Below are positions 3 to 10,007 of a stretch of 44,968 nucleotides of DNA, one piece after another; the stretch's first letter is position 1, and each line of letters opens with the position of its first letter. A program made the position numbers and the translations under genes. Location of the stretch: the NCBI GenBank assembly GCA_964391455.1, contig CAYMJQ010000005.1, forward strand, positions 1-44,968, read 5' to 3'. Below the pieces are notes generated by a model. That model saw only the letters and a list, made by a program, of their open reading frames with translations, had not been told where the DNA came from and ran no database searches. The DNA comes from an uncultured Candidatus Saccharibacteria bacterium (GTDB taxonomy: Bacteria; Patescibacteriota; Minisyncoccia; Phycocordibacterales; DATDWN01).

Positions 3-2465
3 AACAGAGCATTAGGTCTTTCTTCTAACTCAGACAATGTTCCAGGATTATTTATTTCTACTGCAGAAAACATCGGCCTCGGCACCACAACACCTAACAC
101 TCTAACCACAGCAACAATCGCATCTTCTACAGCACCTCAATTATCACTTAGTGCTGGGGCGGGAGTTTCTCAGTGGGCACTTAGAAATGCGGGAGGAAAC
201 TTCTACTTAGGAACTACTACGGTAGCTGGCACATCAACATCTACACTTTCAGCTTTATCAATTGATGGAGCTTCCGGAACAACAAGTGTTTGGGCTCTAA
301 ATGTTTTAGCTACTGGAGCAAATGCTACATCAACTATTAGTGGCAATCTTCAAGTTGTGGGTAATTTGAAAGTTGGACCTTCTTCTACTTATATAACAGA
401 AGATGGAATATTTAATACTAATGGTAGTAGTCCATTTACGATTAATAATTCAGTAGGAACACTTTCTGTTTCCAACACAGGTTTCGGTACCACAACTCTA
501 TCAGGTCTAAACATCTCAGGCTCTGCAACATCTACATCTAATGTAGGCTTCAACATCACCAATGGATGTTATGCTGTAAACGGAACATGTATAACAGGTG
601 GAGGATCCAGTGCTTCATCAACACTACTTGCTGATTCAAATACGTGGAGTGGAACTAACAACTTCACAAACAGATTGTCACTAAGTTCATCCACCCCAAC
701 AGCTCGTCTATCAGTTAACCCAGTAGCAGGAGACTCACTAGGATTCGTAGTTGGTTCATCTACAGCAACACAACTATCAGTATCATCACTTGGCTTCGGT
801 ACCACAACTCTATCAGGTCTAAACATCTCAGGTTCTGCAACATCTACATCTAATGTAGGCTTCAATATTACTGGAGGATGTTATGCCGTTAATGGTATTT
901 GTGTGGGAGGAGGTAGTGGCTCAGATCCATCTATTGGTGGAACATTAACATCTGCAACTCTAGGTTCAGTATTATTTGCGGGTTCAGGAACATTCCAACA
1001 AGACAATGCTAATTTCTTTTATGATGATACAAATAATAGATTAGGTCTTGGAACAACAACACCTTGGGCACAATTATCAATTAATCCTAATGGTATTACT
1101 GGACCAGCATTTGCTATTGGTTCATCAACAAGAACTTTGTTTAAGGTTGATAATGATGGAACAACAACTGTGGGTGATTCTTCTGGTACAGGAGACGCTA
1201 CATTCCAATTCGCATCTGATACTAACGCTTGGTCTATCGGATATAACTCTACAAACAAATCATTTAATATAGCTTCATCAACAAACTTTTCATCAAATGT
1301 TGCATTTACAATAACGAAAGGAACAACAAATAATGTTGGTATTGCTTCAACAACACCATGGAGAACACTCTCGGTTAATGGTACAGTTGCTTTTAACGGC
1401 TTGTCTGCTGTAACTGGAACAGATCAGTCGCTTTGTATAGACGGTACAACTCTTGAAGTTACCACACAGGCGGGAGATACTTGTGCGGTTTCTTCTGCAA
1501 GATTTAAAAACACAATAAATGGATTAGATGATAATAGTCTCGATATGTTTAAGACACTTAGACCTGTATCATTTATATACAATGGTGATACATCAAGTTC
1601 AACACACTGGGGCTTTATAGCAGAAGAGACAGCCTCAACTTCTCCACAACTTTCGTACTTTAATCCAGACGGAACAGTGCAAACAATAAATTCAAGTGCG
1701 ATATTGTCTTTGACAGTTAAGGCTGTTCAAGAAATGAATTTGAATCTTGAAACAATAGCTTCTACAACAGCTAGCACCACAGCATCTTCTATTTCATTTG
1801 CTGACAATTTCTGGTCAAATATATTTGGTCGTTTGATAGCATGGTTTGAAGACAGAGCAAATGGAATTCAAAGATTCTTTGCTAGAGAAGTTAATACAGA
1901 AAAAATCTGTGTATCAGATGAGTCAGGAGAGACTTGTTTAACAAAAGCGCAACTTGATTCACTTTTGGCAAATGTTGGTTTGGCATTAAATAACAACTCA
2001 AATCAAAACCAAACACCTCCACCACCACAATCAAATAATGGAACAGATAATACAAGTCCAGTAATAACAATAAACGGTGATAATCCTGCGGTTATAAATG
2101 TTGGGGATTCATATATAGATTTGGGTGCAAGTGTTACAGATACAGATGAAAATGGAGCTGTGAATAATAATTTAGGTATATATTATAATGTAAATGGTGT
2201 TGATGTTATAGACATAAGTATAGATACAAGTGTTCCGGGTACACACACTATAGTATATTCATCTACTGATGGAGCGGGCAATACAGGCACAGCCACAAGA
2301 GTAGTAGAAGTTGTAGATCCTAATCAGCAAACACAACCAATAGAAACAGAGCCAGAGCCAGAAGTTGTTGAAAATTCAGAACCGCAACCAGAACCAGCAC
2401 CAGAGGTGGAAACAGATACACAGTCACCAGATTTAGAAGAGGAAGTTATTGCAAACAATGAATAA
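3..2465 (+). CDS. Tail-fibre-like secreted repeat protein, 5' end outside the window, with an intramolecular-chaperone (peptidase S74-like) domain followed by an Ig-like domain and a Pro/Glu-rich acidic tail
   Basis: Frame 3 has no stop from base 3 to the listed ORF start at 357, so the gene enters from upstream. Repeated LG(L/F)GTTTP..L.V stalk motifs. The SSARFKNTI...THWGFIAEE block resembles the chaperone-of-endosialidase autoprocessing domain. SPVITINGDNPAVINVGDSYIDLGASVTD resembles DUF5011-type Ig domains. Internal ~76-bp repeat at 483-560 and 795-872. Confidence 0.7.
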   Translation, partial: NRALGLSSNSDNVPGLFISTAENIGLGTTTPNTLTTATIASSTAPQLSLSAGAGVSQWALRNAGGNFYLGTTTVAGTSTSTLSALSIDGASGTTSVWALNVLATGANATSTISGNLQVVGNLKVGPSSTYITEDGIFNTNGSSPFTINNSVGTLSVSNTGFGTTTLSGLNISGSATSTSNVGFNITNGCYAVNGTCITGGGSSASSTLLADSNTWSGTNNFTNRLSLSSSTPTARLSVNPVAGDSLGFVVGSSTATQLSVSSLGFGTTTLSGLNISGSATSTSNVGFNITGGCYAVNGICVGGGSGSDPSIGGTLTSATLGSVLFAGSGTFQQDNANFFYDDTNNRLGLGTTTPWAQLSINPNGITGPAFAIGSSTRTLFKVDNDGTTTVGDSSGTGDATFQFASDTNAWSIGYNSTNKSFNIASSTNFSSNVAFTITKGTTNNVGIASTTPWRTLSVNGTVAFNGLSAVTGTDQSLCIDGTTLEVTTQAGDTCAVSSARFKNTINGLDDNSLDMFKTLRPVSFIYNGDTSSSTHWGFIAEETASTSPQLSYFNPDGTVQTINSSAILSLTVKAVQEMNLNLETIASTTASTTASSISFADNFWSNIFGRLIAWFEDRANGIQRFFAREVNTEKICVSDESGETCLTKAQLDSLLANVGLALNNNSNQNQTPPPPQSNNGTDNTSPVITINGDNPAVINVGDSYIDLGASVTDTDENGAVNNNLGIYYNVNGVDVIDISIDTSVPGTHTIVYSSTDGAGNTGTATRVVEVVDPNQQTQPIETEPEPEVVENSEPQPEPAPEVETDTQSPDLEEEVIANNE

Positions 2466-5884: not shown

Positions 5885-8359
5885 ATGATAAAGGTCTTTA
5901 AAATAAAAAAATATAAATTTGTTGCTATAAAAATAATTATTATATTTATAATATCACCTATTTTGTCTATACTGCCTTTGAATGTTAAAGAAGTTCAGGC
6001 TCAAATTCCAGGTGAAAAGGTTATTTTTTTGACCACAACGGGCACCAACACATGGACGGTTCCAGATGATTGGTCAGACAATAATAAAATAGAAGTTATT
6101 GGAGGTGGGGGTGGGGGTAGAGCTGGATCAACTGCTGGTGCGAGAGGTGGTGGCGGTGGCTCTTATTCGGTTGCAACCGTAACAGGACTTTCTCCTGGTG
6201 GTTCTGTAACATATCGGGTTGGTGCTGGAGGTGCTGGAGGCACTACAGCCGGAACATCTGGAACTACTGGGGGAGATACATTTTTTAATAGAACAGCTGG
6301 TTCAGCAGATACTTGTGGAGATACTGTTTCAGTGTGTGCTAAAGGTGGTACCGGAGGGACATCTGCATCTGCTGGTGGCGTTGGTGGTGCTGTTGCTAGT
6401 AACAAACCAGCAAACGTTGGTTTTGCTGGTGGAAATGCAGGTTCTGGTAGTGGTACTGGTGATACTGGCGGTGGAGGTGGTGCTGCAGCAGGGCCTCATG
6501 GGGTAGGTAATTTGGCCGGTAATGGTCAAGGTGCTTCTCCGGGTGCTGGTGGTGGAGGTGGAGGAAGTGCAGGAAGCTCTGCTACAGCAGGAAGTGCCGG
6601 TTCAACTAATGGTGGTAACGGGGGTAATTCTTGGAGGGGTTCAGGAACTAATGGTACTGGTGCAAATGCAACAACTAATACTCCAGCTTCTTCTGGTACA
6701 AGTGGTGGTGGAGGTGGTGGCGGGGCTGCAACAACAACTACAACATCGCTTAGGGCAGGAGCAAATGGTAGTGATGGTTATGGAGTTTGGGTATCAACTC
6801 ATGCTGAAGATGGGGTAACTCCATCTGTGTCATCTATTGGCCCTGGTGGTGGTGGAGGTGGTGGCGGGGCTGCATCTGGAAACGGAACAGACTCTTCAGG
6901 TGGTGATGGTGGACTATATGGTGCTGGAGGTGGTGGGGCGTATCAAAATGCGGGTGATGGGGCTCAGGGAGTTATAGTAATTACTTATATACCAAGTAGT
7001 ATCGACAATATAAAGACAATTTTTTTGACCACAACAGGCACCAACACATGGACGGTTCCAGATGATTGGTCAGACGATAATGAAATCCATGTATTTGGTG
7101 CTGGTGGTGGAGGTAGAGCAGGATCGTCTTCAGGTGCAAAGGGTGGTGGAGGTGGAGCTTATGCTTCAAGTACTGTAACAGGACTTTCTCCTGGTGGTTC
7201 TGTAACATATCGGGTTGGTGCTGGAGGTGCTGGAGGCACTACAGCCGGAACATCTGGAACTACTGGGGGAGATACATTTTTTAATAGAACAGCTGGTTCA
7301 GCAGATACTTGTGGAGATACTGTTTCAGTGTGTGCTAAAGGTGGTACCGGAGGGACATCTGCAACGGCCGGTGGTGTTGGTGGTCAGATTGTAAATAACA
7401 AACCTGCATACGTAGGATATAATGGTGGTGCTGGAGGAAATGGTAATAACACTGGTGATACTGGTGGTGGAGGCGGTGGAGCAGCTGGGCCTTTTGGTTC
7501 TGGAAGAATAGGTGGTAATGGACAAGGTGCAGCTCCTGGTGCTGGGGGAGGCGGTGGAGGTGCGGGTGGGTTGGGTTCAGCCGGTTCAACTATTGGTGGA
7601 AATGGTGGAGTAAATTTTTCAGGATCTGGTTCTGGTACAGGTGCAAATCCAACAACCAATACTCCAGCTTCAATTGGTACTACAGGCGGTGGAGGTGGTG
7701 GCGGGGCTGCAACAACAACTACAACATCACTTAGGGCAGGGGCAAATGGTTCTAACAGTGAAATTTTTACATCAACTCATGCTGAAGACGGAGTAACTCC
7801 ATCCGTAGCATCCATTGGTCCTGGTGGAGGTGGTGGAGGTGGTGGGGCAACAACTGGTAATGGGACAGGTTCTTCAGGTGGTGATGGTGGTTATGGTGGT
7901 GGAGGTGGTGGAGCGTATCAAAATGCGGGTGATGGTGGAAATGGTTTTATCGTAATTAGATATGTTCCAGAATCTTCAGGTTCGCCCCCCACAACAAACA
8001 CTAACTTCGCTGTACCAGGAGCTACAACAGCAACATTACATGGAACAAAAACAGGTGGAGGAGATGCGACACAACATGGTTTTGCTTGGGGAACAAACTC
8101 AGGATTATCCGGGGGAGATACAGCAACAACAACACTAGGTTCGTTAAATAGTAACAGTGCTTTCATAAGTAATTTATCTGGTCTTAGTACTGGAACAACA
8201 TATTATTTTAGAGCTTATGCTACAAATGCAGATGGAACTGGATATGGAACCATCAAGAGTTTTGTTACAGGGAACACAAATGTAAGTAGAAGTTTGCGGA
8301 TTTTTGAAGGCGCTCGTTTGAATCTATTAAACGGTAAAATTATAATACACCAAAGATAA
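5885..8359 (+). CDS. Secreted glycine-rich repeat protein of 824 aa: two ~330-aa tandem units plus a C-terminal FN3-like module
   Basis: Signal peptide ending in VQAQ. Each unit starts with FLTTTGTNTWTVPDDWSD followed by GGGGG runs, as in glycine-rich domains of phage-fibre-like proteins. C-terminus shared with 2449..4914. Confidence 0.7.
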   Translation: MIKVFKIKKYKFVAIKIIIIFIISPILSILPLNVKEVQAQIPGEKVIFLTTTGTNTWTVPDDWSDNNKIEVIGGGGGGRAGSTAGARGGGGGSYSVATVTGLSPGGSVTYRVGAGGAGGTTAGTSGTTGGDTFFNRTAGSADTCGDTVSVCAKGGTGGTSASAGGVGGAVASNKPANVGFAGGNAGSGSGTGDTGGGGGAAAGPHGVGNLAGNGQGASPGAGGGGGGSAGSSATAGSAGSTNGGNGGNSWRGSGTNGTGANATTNTPASSGTSGGGGGGGAATTTTTSLRAGANGSDGYGVWVSTHAEDGVTPSVSSIGPGGGGGGGGAASGNGTDSSGGDGGLYGAGGGGAYQNAGDGAQGVIVITYIPSSIDNIKTIFLTTTGTNTWTVPDDWSDDNEIHVFGAGGGGRAGSSSGAKGGGGGAYASSTVTGLSPGGSVTYRVGAGGAGGTTAGTSGTTGGDTFFNRTAGSADTCGDTVSVCAKGGTGGTSATAGGVGGQIVNNKPAYVGYNGGAGGNGNNTGDTGGGGGGAAGPFGSGRIGGNGQGAAPGAGGGGGGAGGLGSAGSTIGGNGGVNFSGSGSGTGANPTTNTPASIGTTGGGGGGGAATTTTTSLRAGANGSNSEIFTSTHAEDGVTPSVASIGPGGGGGGGGATTGNGTGSSGGDGGYGGGGGGAYQNAGDGGNGFIVIRYVPESSGSPPTTNTNFAVPGATTATLHGTKTGGGDATQHGFAWGTNSGLSGGDTATTTLGSLNSNSAFISNLSGLSTGTTYYFRAYATNADGTGYGTIKSFVTGNTNVSRSLRIFEGARLNLLNGKIIIHQR
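6179..6367 (+). repeat. 189-bp exact core of the tandem duplication inside the Gly-rich gene, copy 1
   Basis: Identical to 7175..7363 (offset 996 bp). Flanks are related but diverged. Confidence 0.85.
7175..7363 (+). repeat. 189-bp exact core of the tandem duplication inside the Gly-rich gene, copy 2
   Basis: Identical to 6179..6367. Confidence 0.85.
7985..8290 (+). repeat. 306-bp module, copy 2; by eye identical to 4540..4845
   Basis: Same comparison as copy 1. Identity stops abruptly after GTAGA (codons ..VSR). Confidence 0.9.
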
Positions 8360-8937: not shown

Positions 8938-9303
8938 ATGAATAAATTTAGTTTACTTGGTAAAATAATAATACTTCTTTTGTTTGTATTCTTATTTACA
9001 TCAATTTTTCTTTATATAAAATTATCCAGATTAGAAAATAATAATTTAATTACTAATGAAGAGTCGCTGACTGTTGAAGAGAAAATTTCAAAGATTGTTG
9101 TTTTGCCAGAAGGAGAAGAACCTACAATATTTCAAATTACCAATATTGAACAAATAAAAAATGAACCATTTTTTACAAATGCCAAACTAGGGGATAGTGT
9201 ACTTGTGTATACTGGTGTTAAAAAAGCATTTTTGTATAGAGAATCTGAAAATAAGATAGTGGATATAGCCCCAATTATTCTAGAAGAAGAAACTGATATC
9301 TAA
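8938..9303 (+). CDS. Hypothetical membrane-anchored protein
   Basis: ORF with an N-terminal TM helix, followed by a terminator. Confidence 0.5.
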   Translation: MNKFSLLGKIIILLLFVFLFTSIFLYIKLSRLENNNLITNEESLTVEEKISKIVVLPEGEEPTIFQITNIEQIKNEPFFTNAKLGDSVLVYTGVKKAFLYRESENKIVDIAPIILEEETDI

Positions 9304-9305
9304 TG

Positions 9306-9332
9306 AAAAAAACTCCTTTAGGGAGTTTTTTT
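9306..9332. terminator. A-tract/hairpin/T-tract bidirectional terminator
   Basis: AAAAAACTCC-TTTAG-GGAGTTTTTTT lies between the convergent 8938..9303 gene and the rnpB 3' end. Confidence 0.7.
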
Positions 9333-9337
9333 CATTA

Positions 9338-9867
9338 GTCTTTATATCTATAAGCCGAATTCTGTGCCTGGAGTCATTTACTCCAGGAAGCAGTCATTTA
9401 TCTGTCTTTTGTGTTGCCACAAAGATCAAGCGGCACTTCCCTCACCAATTTTGGGTTTAAGCAGACTATTTTTATCCGCTTAAGTAATTCATGTTTTCCT
9501 TTTTTAAGTCTAGCAACAAGATTATGCTTATACCCAATGTATATTTCAAAATTGTAATTGTTTTGAATTATATACATGTAGTACATAATATTTCTTTGTA
9601 CCCAAAATTGGTGAGGGACACGGCCTTGCATTGGGGTAAGGATTTTGCCGTTTCATATTGGCATTACTGCCAATCTATTCCAAAAAGGAATTCCTAGGTT
9701 TTCACCTTGGACGTTTCTGCTCGCACCTCTTGTCCATCACTAAATTTTTAAAATTTAGTGAGGGACAGGTGGGAATTACCCACTACCTTTACCAATTTAA
9801 TGGTTCAATGTTCGGACTTTCCTCCTTAAAGAAGGTTTCTTTAAGGTAACTGCTCAATATAAAGCAC
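9338..9867 (-). ncRNA. rnpB: RNase P RNA, bacterial type A, with a large inserted helix
   Basis: The minus strand reads GGAGGAAAGTCCGAAC (rc of 9810-9825), GTGGGTAATTCCCAC, AAGGTGAAAA, GCAAGGCC, AGATAAATGACTG and ACAGAATTCGGCTTATAG (rc of 9345-9362), in the canonical order. CTTTATAT (5') and ATATAAAG (3') can pair as P1. Exact ends are uncertain by about 5 nt. Confidence 0.85.
9398..9586 (-). pseudogene. GIY-YIG nuclease-like ORF remnant inside the rnpB insertion
   Basis: MYYMYIIQNNYNFEIYIGYKHNLVARLKKGKH matches the N-terminal GIY..YIG..R pattern of small GIY-YIG proteins. The C-terminal half of the domain is missing, and the ORF runs through the stem into the rnpB core. Confidence 0.4.
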
Positions 9868-10007
9868 TTTTGATTATACTATATTTAAATATTTTTGTAA
9901 ATAATTAACTTATTAACATTCGATATTTTTATAGATTATATTTTGAGTATTTTTTGTGTATAATGATATGACAATTATTATAAATTTATACTAAAGTACA
10001 CAAAAAT

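Follow-up and report, generated by a model that had tools for sequence, protein, structure and literature searches.

We analyzed a 44,968-nucleotide stretch of DNA (hereafter the window; contig CAYMJQ010000005.1 of assembly GCA_964391455.1) from an uncultured Candidatus Saccharibacteria bacterium of Parcubacteria type (candidate phyla radiation, CPR), in which the gene for bacterial RNase P RNA (rnpB) is enlarged by an insert with a nested open reading frame (ORF). We consider it likely that this is a genuine and probably functional rnpB gene and that a mobile hairpin cassette, now dead, sits at the end of its P15 arm. The evidence supports the view that the insert derives from a small, mobile hairpin element, now broken, in which a GIY-YIG nuclease was once encoded; an intact copy of the element occupies the same position in a sister genome (locus L083; GCA_964473345.1). 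An initial annotation had suggested a decaying mobile insertion tolerated in an essential ribozyme, and this idea fits the presence and absence of the insert among relatives, its higher conservation compared to the host, and the stages of decay described below.

In a permissive local Rfam scan of window positions 9200-10000, the RF00010 covariance model (CM) aligned end to end (model positions 1-367) with the minus strand of 9335-9865, i.e., over 531 nt, with a score of 74.2 bits (E=1.6e-22). Because of its insertions, the gene scores below the Rfam gathering score of 100 bits, and a default scan of the whole window returned four tRNAs only and missed rnpB. A cassette-free orthologue (L087) reached 107.6 bits, above the cut-off, and the cassette-bearing L083 66.4 bits. 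The core blocks GGAGGAAAGUCCG, GGGUAA, GCAAGGC, GCUUGA, AGAUAAAUG, and ACAGAAUUCGGCUUA followed one another in canonical order on the minus strand, the universal P4 strands were present, and the whole gene folded much more stably than shuffled sequence (z = -11.6). The neighboring gene encodes an 801-aa TPR protein with a graded series of homologues in Parcubacteria/Paceibacteria, an alignment of which led to 80 loci in GTDB genomes. The loci of the closest relatives, with a TPR identity of 72-73%, were retrieved through exact matches of the protein. rnpB adjoined the TPR gene in 63 of the 80 related genomes, a synteny that points to orthology. We conclude that window 9335-9865 is a genuine type-A RNase P RNA gene.

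Two large insertions were apparent in the CM alignment, one of ∼86 nt in place of 13 nt in the P9 region and one of ∼145 nt at model position 245/246. The latter lies on the P15/P16/P17 arm, between GCAAGGCC and GCUUGA. It is bounded by a perfect Watson-Crick stem of 19 bp, in which RNA positions 248-266 pair with 410-428 (window 9618-9600 with 9456-9438) and which encloses 143 nt (9457-9599). Since the cassette stem continues the host helix, the extra RNA would project from the ribozyme surface and leave the catalytic core untouched. Much of the initial annotation was thus borne out: all type-A core motifs were in order on the minus strand, the ∼530-nt gene was long, and the locus was recognized by the CM over its full length, though below the gathering score. 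The stem it had described is real and encloses the 143 nt reported, but is perfect rather than near-perfect and ends at 9618 instead of 9619. Its placement of the insert near P13/P14 was wrong, as the CM assigns it to the P15/P16 arm, and its attribution of the excess length to a single helix holds for P15 but overlooked a second, smaller expansion at P9 (9732-9766).

The remnant ORF within the insert (MYYMYIIQNNYNFEIYIGYKHNLVARLKKGKH...) starts with an ATG at 9586-9584 and, as first described, terminates only inside the rnpB core, where its first stop (9398-9400) falls within the AGAUAAAUG block. In alignments with intact homologues, the peptide retained the GIY and YIG tyrosines and the Arg, and was without the catalytic His and Glu. 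It matched profile positions 1-38 of 78 of Pfam GIY-YIG (PF01541) with E=2e-4, but its 22.0 bits remained just under the cut-off of 22.6; a search of a large protein database with the 62-aa peptide, subject to a word-index limit, gave no match. Taken alone, this borderline peptide is suggestive, not conclusive, for GIY-YIG. Its identification rests on the intact L083 orthologue, the protein of which found the window by tblastn with E=6e-11. We read the window ORF as a GIY-YIG remnant and not as a functional member of the family. The features concerned are as follows.

9335..9865, minus strand: rnpB, bacterial type A, 531 nt with insertions (RF00010 match, synteny, fold z-score).
9438..9618, minus strand: degraded GIY-YIG hairpin cassette, 181 nt, at the P15 arm tip (alignment to the intact L083 cassette, CM placement).
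9600..9618, minus strand: 5' arm of the cassette stem, UCCCUCACCAAUUUUGGGU (perfect 19-bp inverted repeat; identical in L083).
9438..9456, minus strand: 3' arm of the cassette stem, ACCCAAAAUUGGUGAGGGA (perfect 19-bp inverted repeat; L083 alignment).
9398..9586, minus strand: remnant ORF, 62 codons counted from the homologous ATG, with frameshifted C terminus (ORF reading, Pfam, protein alignment, tblastn).
9500..9505, minus strand: junction of a 126-nt (42-codon) internal deletion, ambiguous in an A run (alignment to L083).
9474..9475, minus strand: 1-nt deletion relative to L083 (GCGGA-TAAAAAT) that frameshifts the ORF tail (alignment to L083).

In L083, the stem of the window (GTCCCTCACCAATTTTGGG...CCCAAAATTGGTGAGGGAAG) was found at the same rnpB position (the same model position in the CM alignment), where it encloses an intact 99-codon ORF (MYYMYIIQNDYNFEIYIGYTNNLVSRLKKHNEGGNKSTAFRKGSWKYVYVEVFRSKADALERERKLKHHAKGKHELLKRIKNS...) with a Pfam GIY-YIG (PF01541) hit, the whole cassette measuring ∼300 nt. 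The window arm equals the L083 arm minus a clean in-frame 126 nt (42 codons) and minus 1 nt near the 3' end, and is otherwise 90.6% identical to it, which confirmed the initial reading of the peptide as the N-terminal half of a GIY-YIG protein. Lost with the 42 codons are the His and Glu columns, which do not vary among intact homologues; in L083, the endpoints of the deletion sit at the short direct repeats CTAAAGAAACAT and CTAAAGGAAAACAT. The intact ORF (L083 1768-2067, minus strand) has no stop codon of its own; the frame stays open across the 3' arm of the stem and the 3' strand of P15 and ends only in the P18 loop, with ∼17 C-terminal residues of the nuclease encoded by ribozyme core sequence. 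Owing to this read-through into the P18 loop, a translated transcript could not simultaneously fold as a ribozyme. A recognizable Shine-Dalgarno sequence was absent for the TPR gene (window 9867-10007) and for the nested GIY-YIG ORFs of L083 and L085, all of which have A/T-rich leaders, and translation signals are therefore no guide to the expression of nested ORFs.

Comparison with relatives revealed both occupied and empty alleles of the P15 site. The core-to-core length of rnpB ranged from 241 to 688 nt, and lineages differed in which arm was longer. In most relatives the GCAAGG..GCTTGA (P15) arm measured 31-39 nt, with a 4-6 bp hairpin between the flanks GCAAGGCCGTGTCC...GGAAGTGCCGCTTGA. 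The arm of L003, GCAAGGCCGTGTCC-ACTTTTAGT-GGAAGTGCCGCTTGA, has the flanks of the window around a short hairpin and therefore demonstrates that insert-free alleles exist; the helix is not a conserved ORF-free expansion. Empty sites of this kind (4-6 bp hairpin, same flanks) were present in L084-87, L003, L007, and L018. Between the window and L083, identity of the cassette (90.6%) exceeded that of flanking rnpB (73.8% in the 5' part and 60.8% in the 3' part), which argues that the cassette moved after the hosts had diverged. Occupied and empty alleles at one site, with the element more similar than its flanks, are the pattern of homing-type elements. The P15 arms moreover formed a size series, from L083 (∼300 nt) via the window (181 nt) to ORF-free arms of 95 nt (L033), 78 nt (L035), and 70 nt (L008); these ORF-free arms contain related long stems, the pairing of which is kept by G-U pairs and compensatory changes.

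The second expansion of the window rnpB lies at P9:

9732..9766, minus strand: extended P9 hairpin, 35 nt, ∼15 bp with one mismatch (CM alignment, repeat of the P15 stem start).

Its 5' arm, TGTCCCTCAC(T)AA.TTT, has the sequence with which the P15 stem begins, and its TGTCC/CTCAC junction is the same as that of the P15 cassette. GTCCCTCAC occurs in exactly two copies in the 45-kb window, each at the base of a long rnpB hairpin, and P9 in L082-L087 is a 4-5 bp hairpin (GNRA). The P9 hairpin of the window is probably the solo-stem relic of a second hairpin of the type that we term family B below. The further rnpB features to which the cassettes of relatives were compared are the following.

9824..9846, minus strand: P3 hairpin CCUUAAAGAA-ACC-UUCUUUAAGG, short and cassette-free here (sequence, CM alignment).
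9810..9825, minus strand: P4 5' strand and universal GGAGGAAAGUCCGAAC block (sequence, CM alignment).
9405..9425, minus strand: P18 hairpin (CM alignment).
9367..9387, minus strand: J2/4 hairpin at a P19-like position, short here (sequence and comparison with relatives); we take P19 to be the helix name for this hairpin in RNase P nomenclature.
9352..9365, minus strand: P4 3' strand ACAGAAUUCGGCUU (sequence, CM alignment).
9300..9338, minus strand: intrinsic-terminator-like hairpin (17 bp, then a T run) directly after rnpB (sequence, CM scan).

Cassettes were not limited to P15 and could be assigned to two families by their stems. In family A, an 80-aa GIY-YIG ORF lies wholly within helix P3 (L012, L082, L084-86, L089, L090, and L172/173); the intact protein of L085, like that of L083, has a PF01541 hit. 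Its stem of 12-13 bp replaces the P3 helix, and CC[AC]CGTGAGATA / TATCTCACG[TG]GG directly abuts GGAGGAAAGUCC; between lineages the stem shows a compensatory double change (CCACGTGAGATA/TATCTCACGTGG versus CCCCGTGAGATA/TATCTCACGGGG). The P3 ORFs are under strong purifying selection, with ratios of nonsynonymous to synonymous substitution (dN/dS) of 0.05-0.16; L085 and L082, for example, differ by 14 nonsynonymous and 31 synonymous changes. Decayed ORFs of this family comprised a truncated copy at the P3 site (L109) and an N-terminal fragment only (L068). All rnpB-borne ORFs were in sense orientation. Homologous ORF-less elements of 92 nt were found at the J5/7 hairpin (L084-86) and at the J2/4 P19 position (L082), and a 37-nt mini-hairpin had identical copies in L082 (P15 arm) and L087 (P19). 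Family-A hairpins of 34 nt constitute P3 itself (L023) or occupy P19 (L064). The P19-like position carried ORF-less cassette hairpins in L082, L087, L064, L077, and L078. Of 13 perfect NNNNTGAGAT inverted-repeat pairs in ∼800 kb of fetched sequence, 12 were inside rnpB. Just 3' of rnpB in L082 (∼40-75, minus strand), a hairpin region holds CCCATGAGATAGC, which is similar to the family-A repeat arm and may be another mini-element acting as terminator.

Family-B stems (TCCAGCACTTATTTTG, TCCAGCCCCACTTTT, CCCAGCACCACTTTTTAGG, CCGAGCACCA..) occurred one to four times per rnpB, at P3, J5/7, P15, and P19, and in many lineages. Matches to family-B arms numbered 40 inside rnpB (13 kb) versus 2 outside (164 kb). 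The two outside matches form the sole family-B hairpin found there, a perfect one of 17 bp (CCGAGCACCACTTTTG...CAAAAGTGGTGCTCGG; L057 377-425), lies ∼2.9 kb from rnpB, and no Rfam-recognizable host was found for it. Two to four copies of the same family-B hairpin were present in single rnpB genes of L036 (core 437 nt), L172 (451 nt), L081 (405 nt), and L077 (623 nt). The P15 arms of L012, L016, L020, and L077 (154-176 nt) contain GCATCTCAC..GTGAGATGC mini-hairpins and AT-rich internal repeats without an ORF, and their CTCAC/GTGAG motif is arranged opposite to that of family A.

The cassette was also found outside rnpB. A profile of four intact proteins had 5,505 homologues, the top matches of which were nearly all 80-aa proteins of Paceibacteria. 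We examined 80 metagenomic loci with 48-77% identity, 3 of which were in rnpB. In ∼55 of the 80, the ORF lay between the arms of a perfect inverted repeat with conserved sequence (CCCCGTGAGATA, CCCCGTTAGAGAT, CCCTGTGAAATA...) and a length of 8 nt or more, mostly 12-17 nt. Some cassettes were intergenic (L169-171), and many split protein genes cleanly, at recurrent positions and in the orientation of the host. Hosts rejoined in silico matched Pfam models over the junction (e.g., 23S_rRNA_IVP 1-106/106, E=5e-30). At other hosts, too, cassettes were more similar than the genes around them (97% versus 75-84% and 88% versus 63-70% identity). The halves of interrupted protein genes had a dN/dS of ∼0.2, which is uninformative on host selection since most cassettes are younger than the divergence of their hosts and the others comparably diverged. 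An Rfam scan of 20 cassette loci and rRNA motif scans of L089-L173 found no rRNA, tmRNA, or other RNA host apart from RNase P.

Among the split genes, those for 23S_rRNA_IVP (four-helix-bundle) proteins were interrupted at or near ..SNIA/EG.. (the slash marks the split) in L094, L103, L105, L107, L108, L111, L112, L114, L115, L135, L139, L146, and L149, and the stop codon of the split host comes from the 5' repeat (directly after ..PVK or ..PVR). ORF6N-domain genes carried the cassette near the C-terminal ..PEPExPKKRIGF (L096, L101, L120, L122, L127, L128, L138, and L148), and a putative AlbA_2/HATPase_c_4 regulator was interrupted at ..REA/xNAxVHRDY (L110 and L117). The recurrent ORF6N and regulator sites suggest several site-specific sublineages. 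The best relatives of solved structure were UPF0213 BH0048 (E=4e-12) and EF2693, then SLX1, and NCBIfam contained no family that scored above its cut-off for either intact protein. The predicted nuclease belongs to the branch of the GIY-YIG superfamily whose small proteins consist of the catalytic domain only, and is not of I-TevI type.

For the fate of the RNA, it is possible, though we find it doubtful, that the insert behaves as a strict intervening sequence (IVS): RNase III would cut the stem, the loop would be discarded or used as mRNA, and a two-piece, non-covalently held RNase P RNA would result. This would be compatible with the DNA-level cassette account. The helix-tip site, the perfect 19-bp terminal stem, the sporadic distribution, and the enclosed ORF all match the IVSs of 23S rRNA (PMC4990558; PMC11270868). 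Insertion at a helix tip with stem-forming termini was seen at P15 of the window and at P3 of relatives, in each case sporadically among close relatives. However, a cut in P3 or P15 would fragment the ribozyme. Moreover, the P3 cassette stems measure only 12-13 bp, which is short for RNase III.

A less probable explanation, which we consider unlikely, is that RNase P RNA of this lineage has its long P15 helix as a structural expansion selected for a role at the RNA level, such as protein binding or a tertiary contact, and that the ORF is secondary or a chance resemblance. In its favor, large helix extensions, an extended P15 among them, are known in RNase P RNAs of the CPR (PMC8172020). Family-B stems are found again and again in rnpB genes and hardly ever in the DNA nearby, and decayed stems keep their pairing by G-U pairs and compensatory changes. 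In contrast, the extension is absent in most relatives, close ones included, and the same stem type at different helices, with several copies per gene, fits insertion better. The tblastn match and alignment of L083 speak against a chance resemblance of the ORF, and the family-A stem travels with the ORF to sites outside rnpB.

We rejected a degenerate group I or group II intron that carries a homing endonuclease gene and is spliced from the rnpB transcript, a possibility that we rate as very slight. GIY-YIG genes are classic passengers of group I introns, and there was a weak, sub-threshold NCBIfam match to grpIintron_endo (21 bits, cut-off 56). However, permissive Rfam scans detected no intron family at the window locus, in L083/85/87, or in 20 other cassette loci, and there is no room for an intron ribozyme because the intact cassette of ∼300 nt is almost all ORF. 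All GIY-YIG ORFs in CPR rRNA genes likewise lie in non-group I/II insertions (PMC11270868). That the insert is an assembly chimera or a sequencing artefact is least credible of all and was also rejected, since, even though the window comes from a metagenomic assembly, an independent Logan assembly (SRR15237806, L001) was 100% identical across the whole locus, which therefore is not an artefact of one assembly, and the homologous cassette is found at the matching position of L083, a second genome that comes from another study.

Several points weigh against a mobile cassette as the source of the P15 insert. The window and L083 were the only two ORF-bearing family-B copies found, and mobility of family B thus rests mainly on one pair and on stem similarity elsewhere. 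Selection on the stem, and in L083 on the ORF, could account for part of the higher cassette identity, instead of recent transfer. In the neighborhoods sampled, the hairpin modules hardly occur outside rnpB, and they could also be RNA modules selected for a role in the RNase P of this clade. The enrichment of both families in rnpB is biased because the loci were chosen around it and, for family B, the arms were defined from it. Finally, any retention, processing, and translation of the insert are predictions, and the proposed substrate of the nuclease clade (a hairpin in single-stranded DNA, an empty site, or another) is a guess from analogy.

On the mobile-cassette reading, the element consists of terminal inverted repeats of ∼19 nt that pair with each other and of a single-domain GIY-YIG ORF (UPF0213/SLX1-like, with Ssn-like organization; see below) in the loop, in rnpB orientation. 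Its cycle would begin with invasion of a hairpin tip beside highly conserved rnpB sequence, after which the nuclease may be expressed from the rnpB transcript. The intact nuclease would help the cassette to be copied into unoccupied sites, perhaps, as the Ssn nucleases suggest, by cutting single-stranded DNA next to a hairpin. DNA encoding RNA helices is palindromic and would hence be a natural target for a hairpin-recognizing nuclease, and the insertions that survive in rnpB would be those at solvent-exposed hairpin tips beside conserved sequence. Internal deletion of the ORF would follow. The window copy has lost 42 codons, probably via slippage between short direct repeats, and then one further base, and is now a non-autonomous 181-nt helix extension. 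In the last step a solo stem would persist as the helix itself, of which P9 of the window is probably an example.

We tentatively extend this to a broader proposal, which may well prove wrong in part or whole: hairpin-bounded single-domain GIY-YIG cassettes would be a distinct class of mobile element in Paceibacteria/Parcubacteria that homes in fixed orientation into rnpB hairpin tips (P3, J5/7, P9, P15, and P19) and into exact sites within protein genes (23S_rRNA_IVP at SNIA/EG, the ORF6N C terminus, and the AlbA_2/HATPase_c_4 regulator), and the decay products of which would be the origin of unexplained helix expansions in CPR RNase P RNAs and perhaps rRNAs. Both halves of interrupted protein genes are intact and give full-length domains when joined in silico, for which reason the cassette may be neutralized at the RNA or protein level by an undescribed mechanism.

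RNase P RNA belongs to the small number of universal ribozymes, and its gene serves as a completeness marker, yet CPR versions are routinely missed; one concrete cause is that mobile protein-coding hairpin cassettes in outer helices lower CM scores from ∼108 to 60-74 bits. A nuclease gene that is under purifying selection and nested in a ribozyme gene also means that one transcript would have to be either mRNA or catalyst. The rnpB variants described here are natural constructs with which the capacity of each RNase P helix for additional RNA can be probed, and they link the puzzling helix expansions of structural RNAs in the CPR to a life cycle that can be traced from invasion via deletion to the solo stem.

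Among the relatives, rnpB stays upstream of the TPR gene (at ∼4001 in loci L002-L081), but its orientation varies, with 38 co-directional and 25 divergent arrangements, which implies repeated inversion of the RNA gene alone. Elsewhere in the window, an 824-aa glycine-rich protein (5885-8359, plus strand) is an internal tandem duplication, both near-identical halves of which start with IFLTTTGTNTWTVPDDWSD....

The kind of element is known from rRNA genes of the CPR. In these genes, GIY-YIG ORFs are confined to non-intron insertions, which sit at stem-loop tops or bases and some of which were suggested to be of IVS type (Tsurumaki et al. 2024, PMC11270868), and that paper credits Brown et al. 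(2015) with non-intron GIY-YIG insertions in CPR 16S/23S rRNA genes. The rnpB cassette shares with them the radiation, the protein superfamily, the lack of a group I/II ribozyme, the position at stem-loop tops or bases of an essential structural RNA, and the occurrence in scattered lineages. It differs in its host, the RNase P ribozyme gene, which is not mentioned in PMC11270868, and in its definition as an ORF with a conserved terminal inverted repeat that replaces or extends a host helix and is found in intact, deleted, and solo-stem stages. Literature searches on GIY-YIG with RNase P RNA/rnpB, and on RNase P RNA with intervening sequence and ORF, found no report of a protein gene nested in a bacterial rnpB. 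The initial annotation was right in stating that such insertions are known in CPR rRNA genes and in knowing of no rnpB equivalent, but the element is not unique to the window genome, as its family recurs at several rnpB helices and at other sites. What is new is thus the rnpB host, the definition of a hairpin-bounded cassette, the colonization of multiple helices, and the visible decay series; rnpB, thought to be free of such insertions, is a recurring host for them.

The IVSs of 23S rRNA are a second parallel. The helix-45 IVS of Coxiella burnetii carries an ORF (S23p), and RNase III excises 23S IVSs (PMC4990558). Like the rnpB cassette, they are selfish, sporadic, and inserted at the helix tip of a structural RNA, with stem-forming termini and an enclosed ORF. 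Unlike it, they encode a four-helix-bundle 23S_rRNA_IVP protein instead of a GIY-YIG nuclease, reside in a different host RNA, and have been shown to be excised by RNase III. Cassettes of the rnpB family in turn interrupt 23S_rRNA_IVP genes.

A third comparison is with the Ssn proteins, single-domain GIY-YIG nucleases whose genes are flanked by hairpin repeats and which cut single-stranded DNA site-specifically next to a hairpin, without acting on RNA or double-stranded DNA (Chenal et al. 2025, PMC11893778). Both systems pair a small single-domain GIY-YIG protein with hairpin-forming repeats that bracket its gene and with ORF-less copies elsewhere, and the authors of that study note the insertion-sequence-like layout of Ssn. 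At 80 aa (L085, L082, and L012) and 99 aa (L083), the cassette proteins are within the limit of at most 150 aa for single-domain GIY-YIG proteins of the Ssn kind. However, the Ssn gene is flanked by two complete hairpins (NTS/SRM), whereas a single hairpin supplies both arms around the cassette ORF, and the repeats are not related in sequence (ATTCCC..GGGAAT in Ssn, CCCCGTGAGATA or TCCCTCACCAATTTTGGG in the cassette). Ssn belongs to CDD cd10448, whereas the best solved relatives of the cassette nuclease are UPF0213 proteins. Ssn repeats occur genome-wide, whereas cassette repeats were concentrated in rnpB in the loci sampled, and cleavage of single-stranded DNA by the cassette nuclease is a prediction from this analogy. 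With the rnpB cassettes, the recently described association between small GIY-YIG nucleases and hairpin repeats would reach into a further phylum and to a novel type of target. The hairpin-recognizing HUH transposases of REP/RAYT and IS200/IS605 systems likewise combine one nuclease gene with more numerous short, non-autonomous hairpin repeats. The discussion in PMC11893778 also draws this parallel. Their fold and chemistry are unrelated to those of GIY-YIG enzymes, which form no covalent intermediate and therefore would not carry out strand transfer by themselves.

The RNase P RNAs of the CPR are known to score below Rfam cut-offs and to carry large additions to their helices, P15 among them (Lui et al. 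2021, PMC8172020). Known expansions resemble the cassette in adding sequence at peripheral helix tips of type-A RNAs and in pushing CM scores below threshold. STRR repeats in P12 of the RNase P RNA of heterocystous cyanobacteria were reportedly described by Vioque in 1997. Such expansions have been described as ORF-free, whereas the rnpB expansion studied here was traced to a protein-coding mobile cassette that is intact in a sister genome. With the T4 Seg proteins and I-TevI, which are free-standing and intron-borne GIY-YIG homing endonucleases, the cassette finally shares presence or absence at a fixed site next to conserved host sequence and a higher conservation of the element than of its flanks; those proteins are ∼200-250 aa long and have a separate DNA-binding domain, whereas the cassette proteins, with 80-99 aa, consist of the catalytic domain only.

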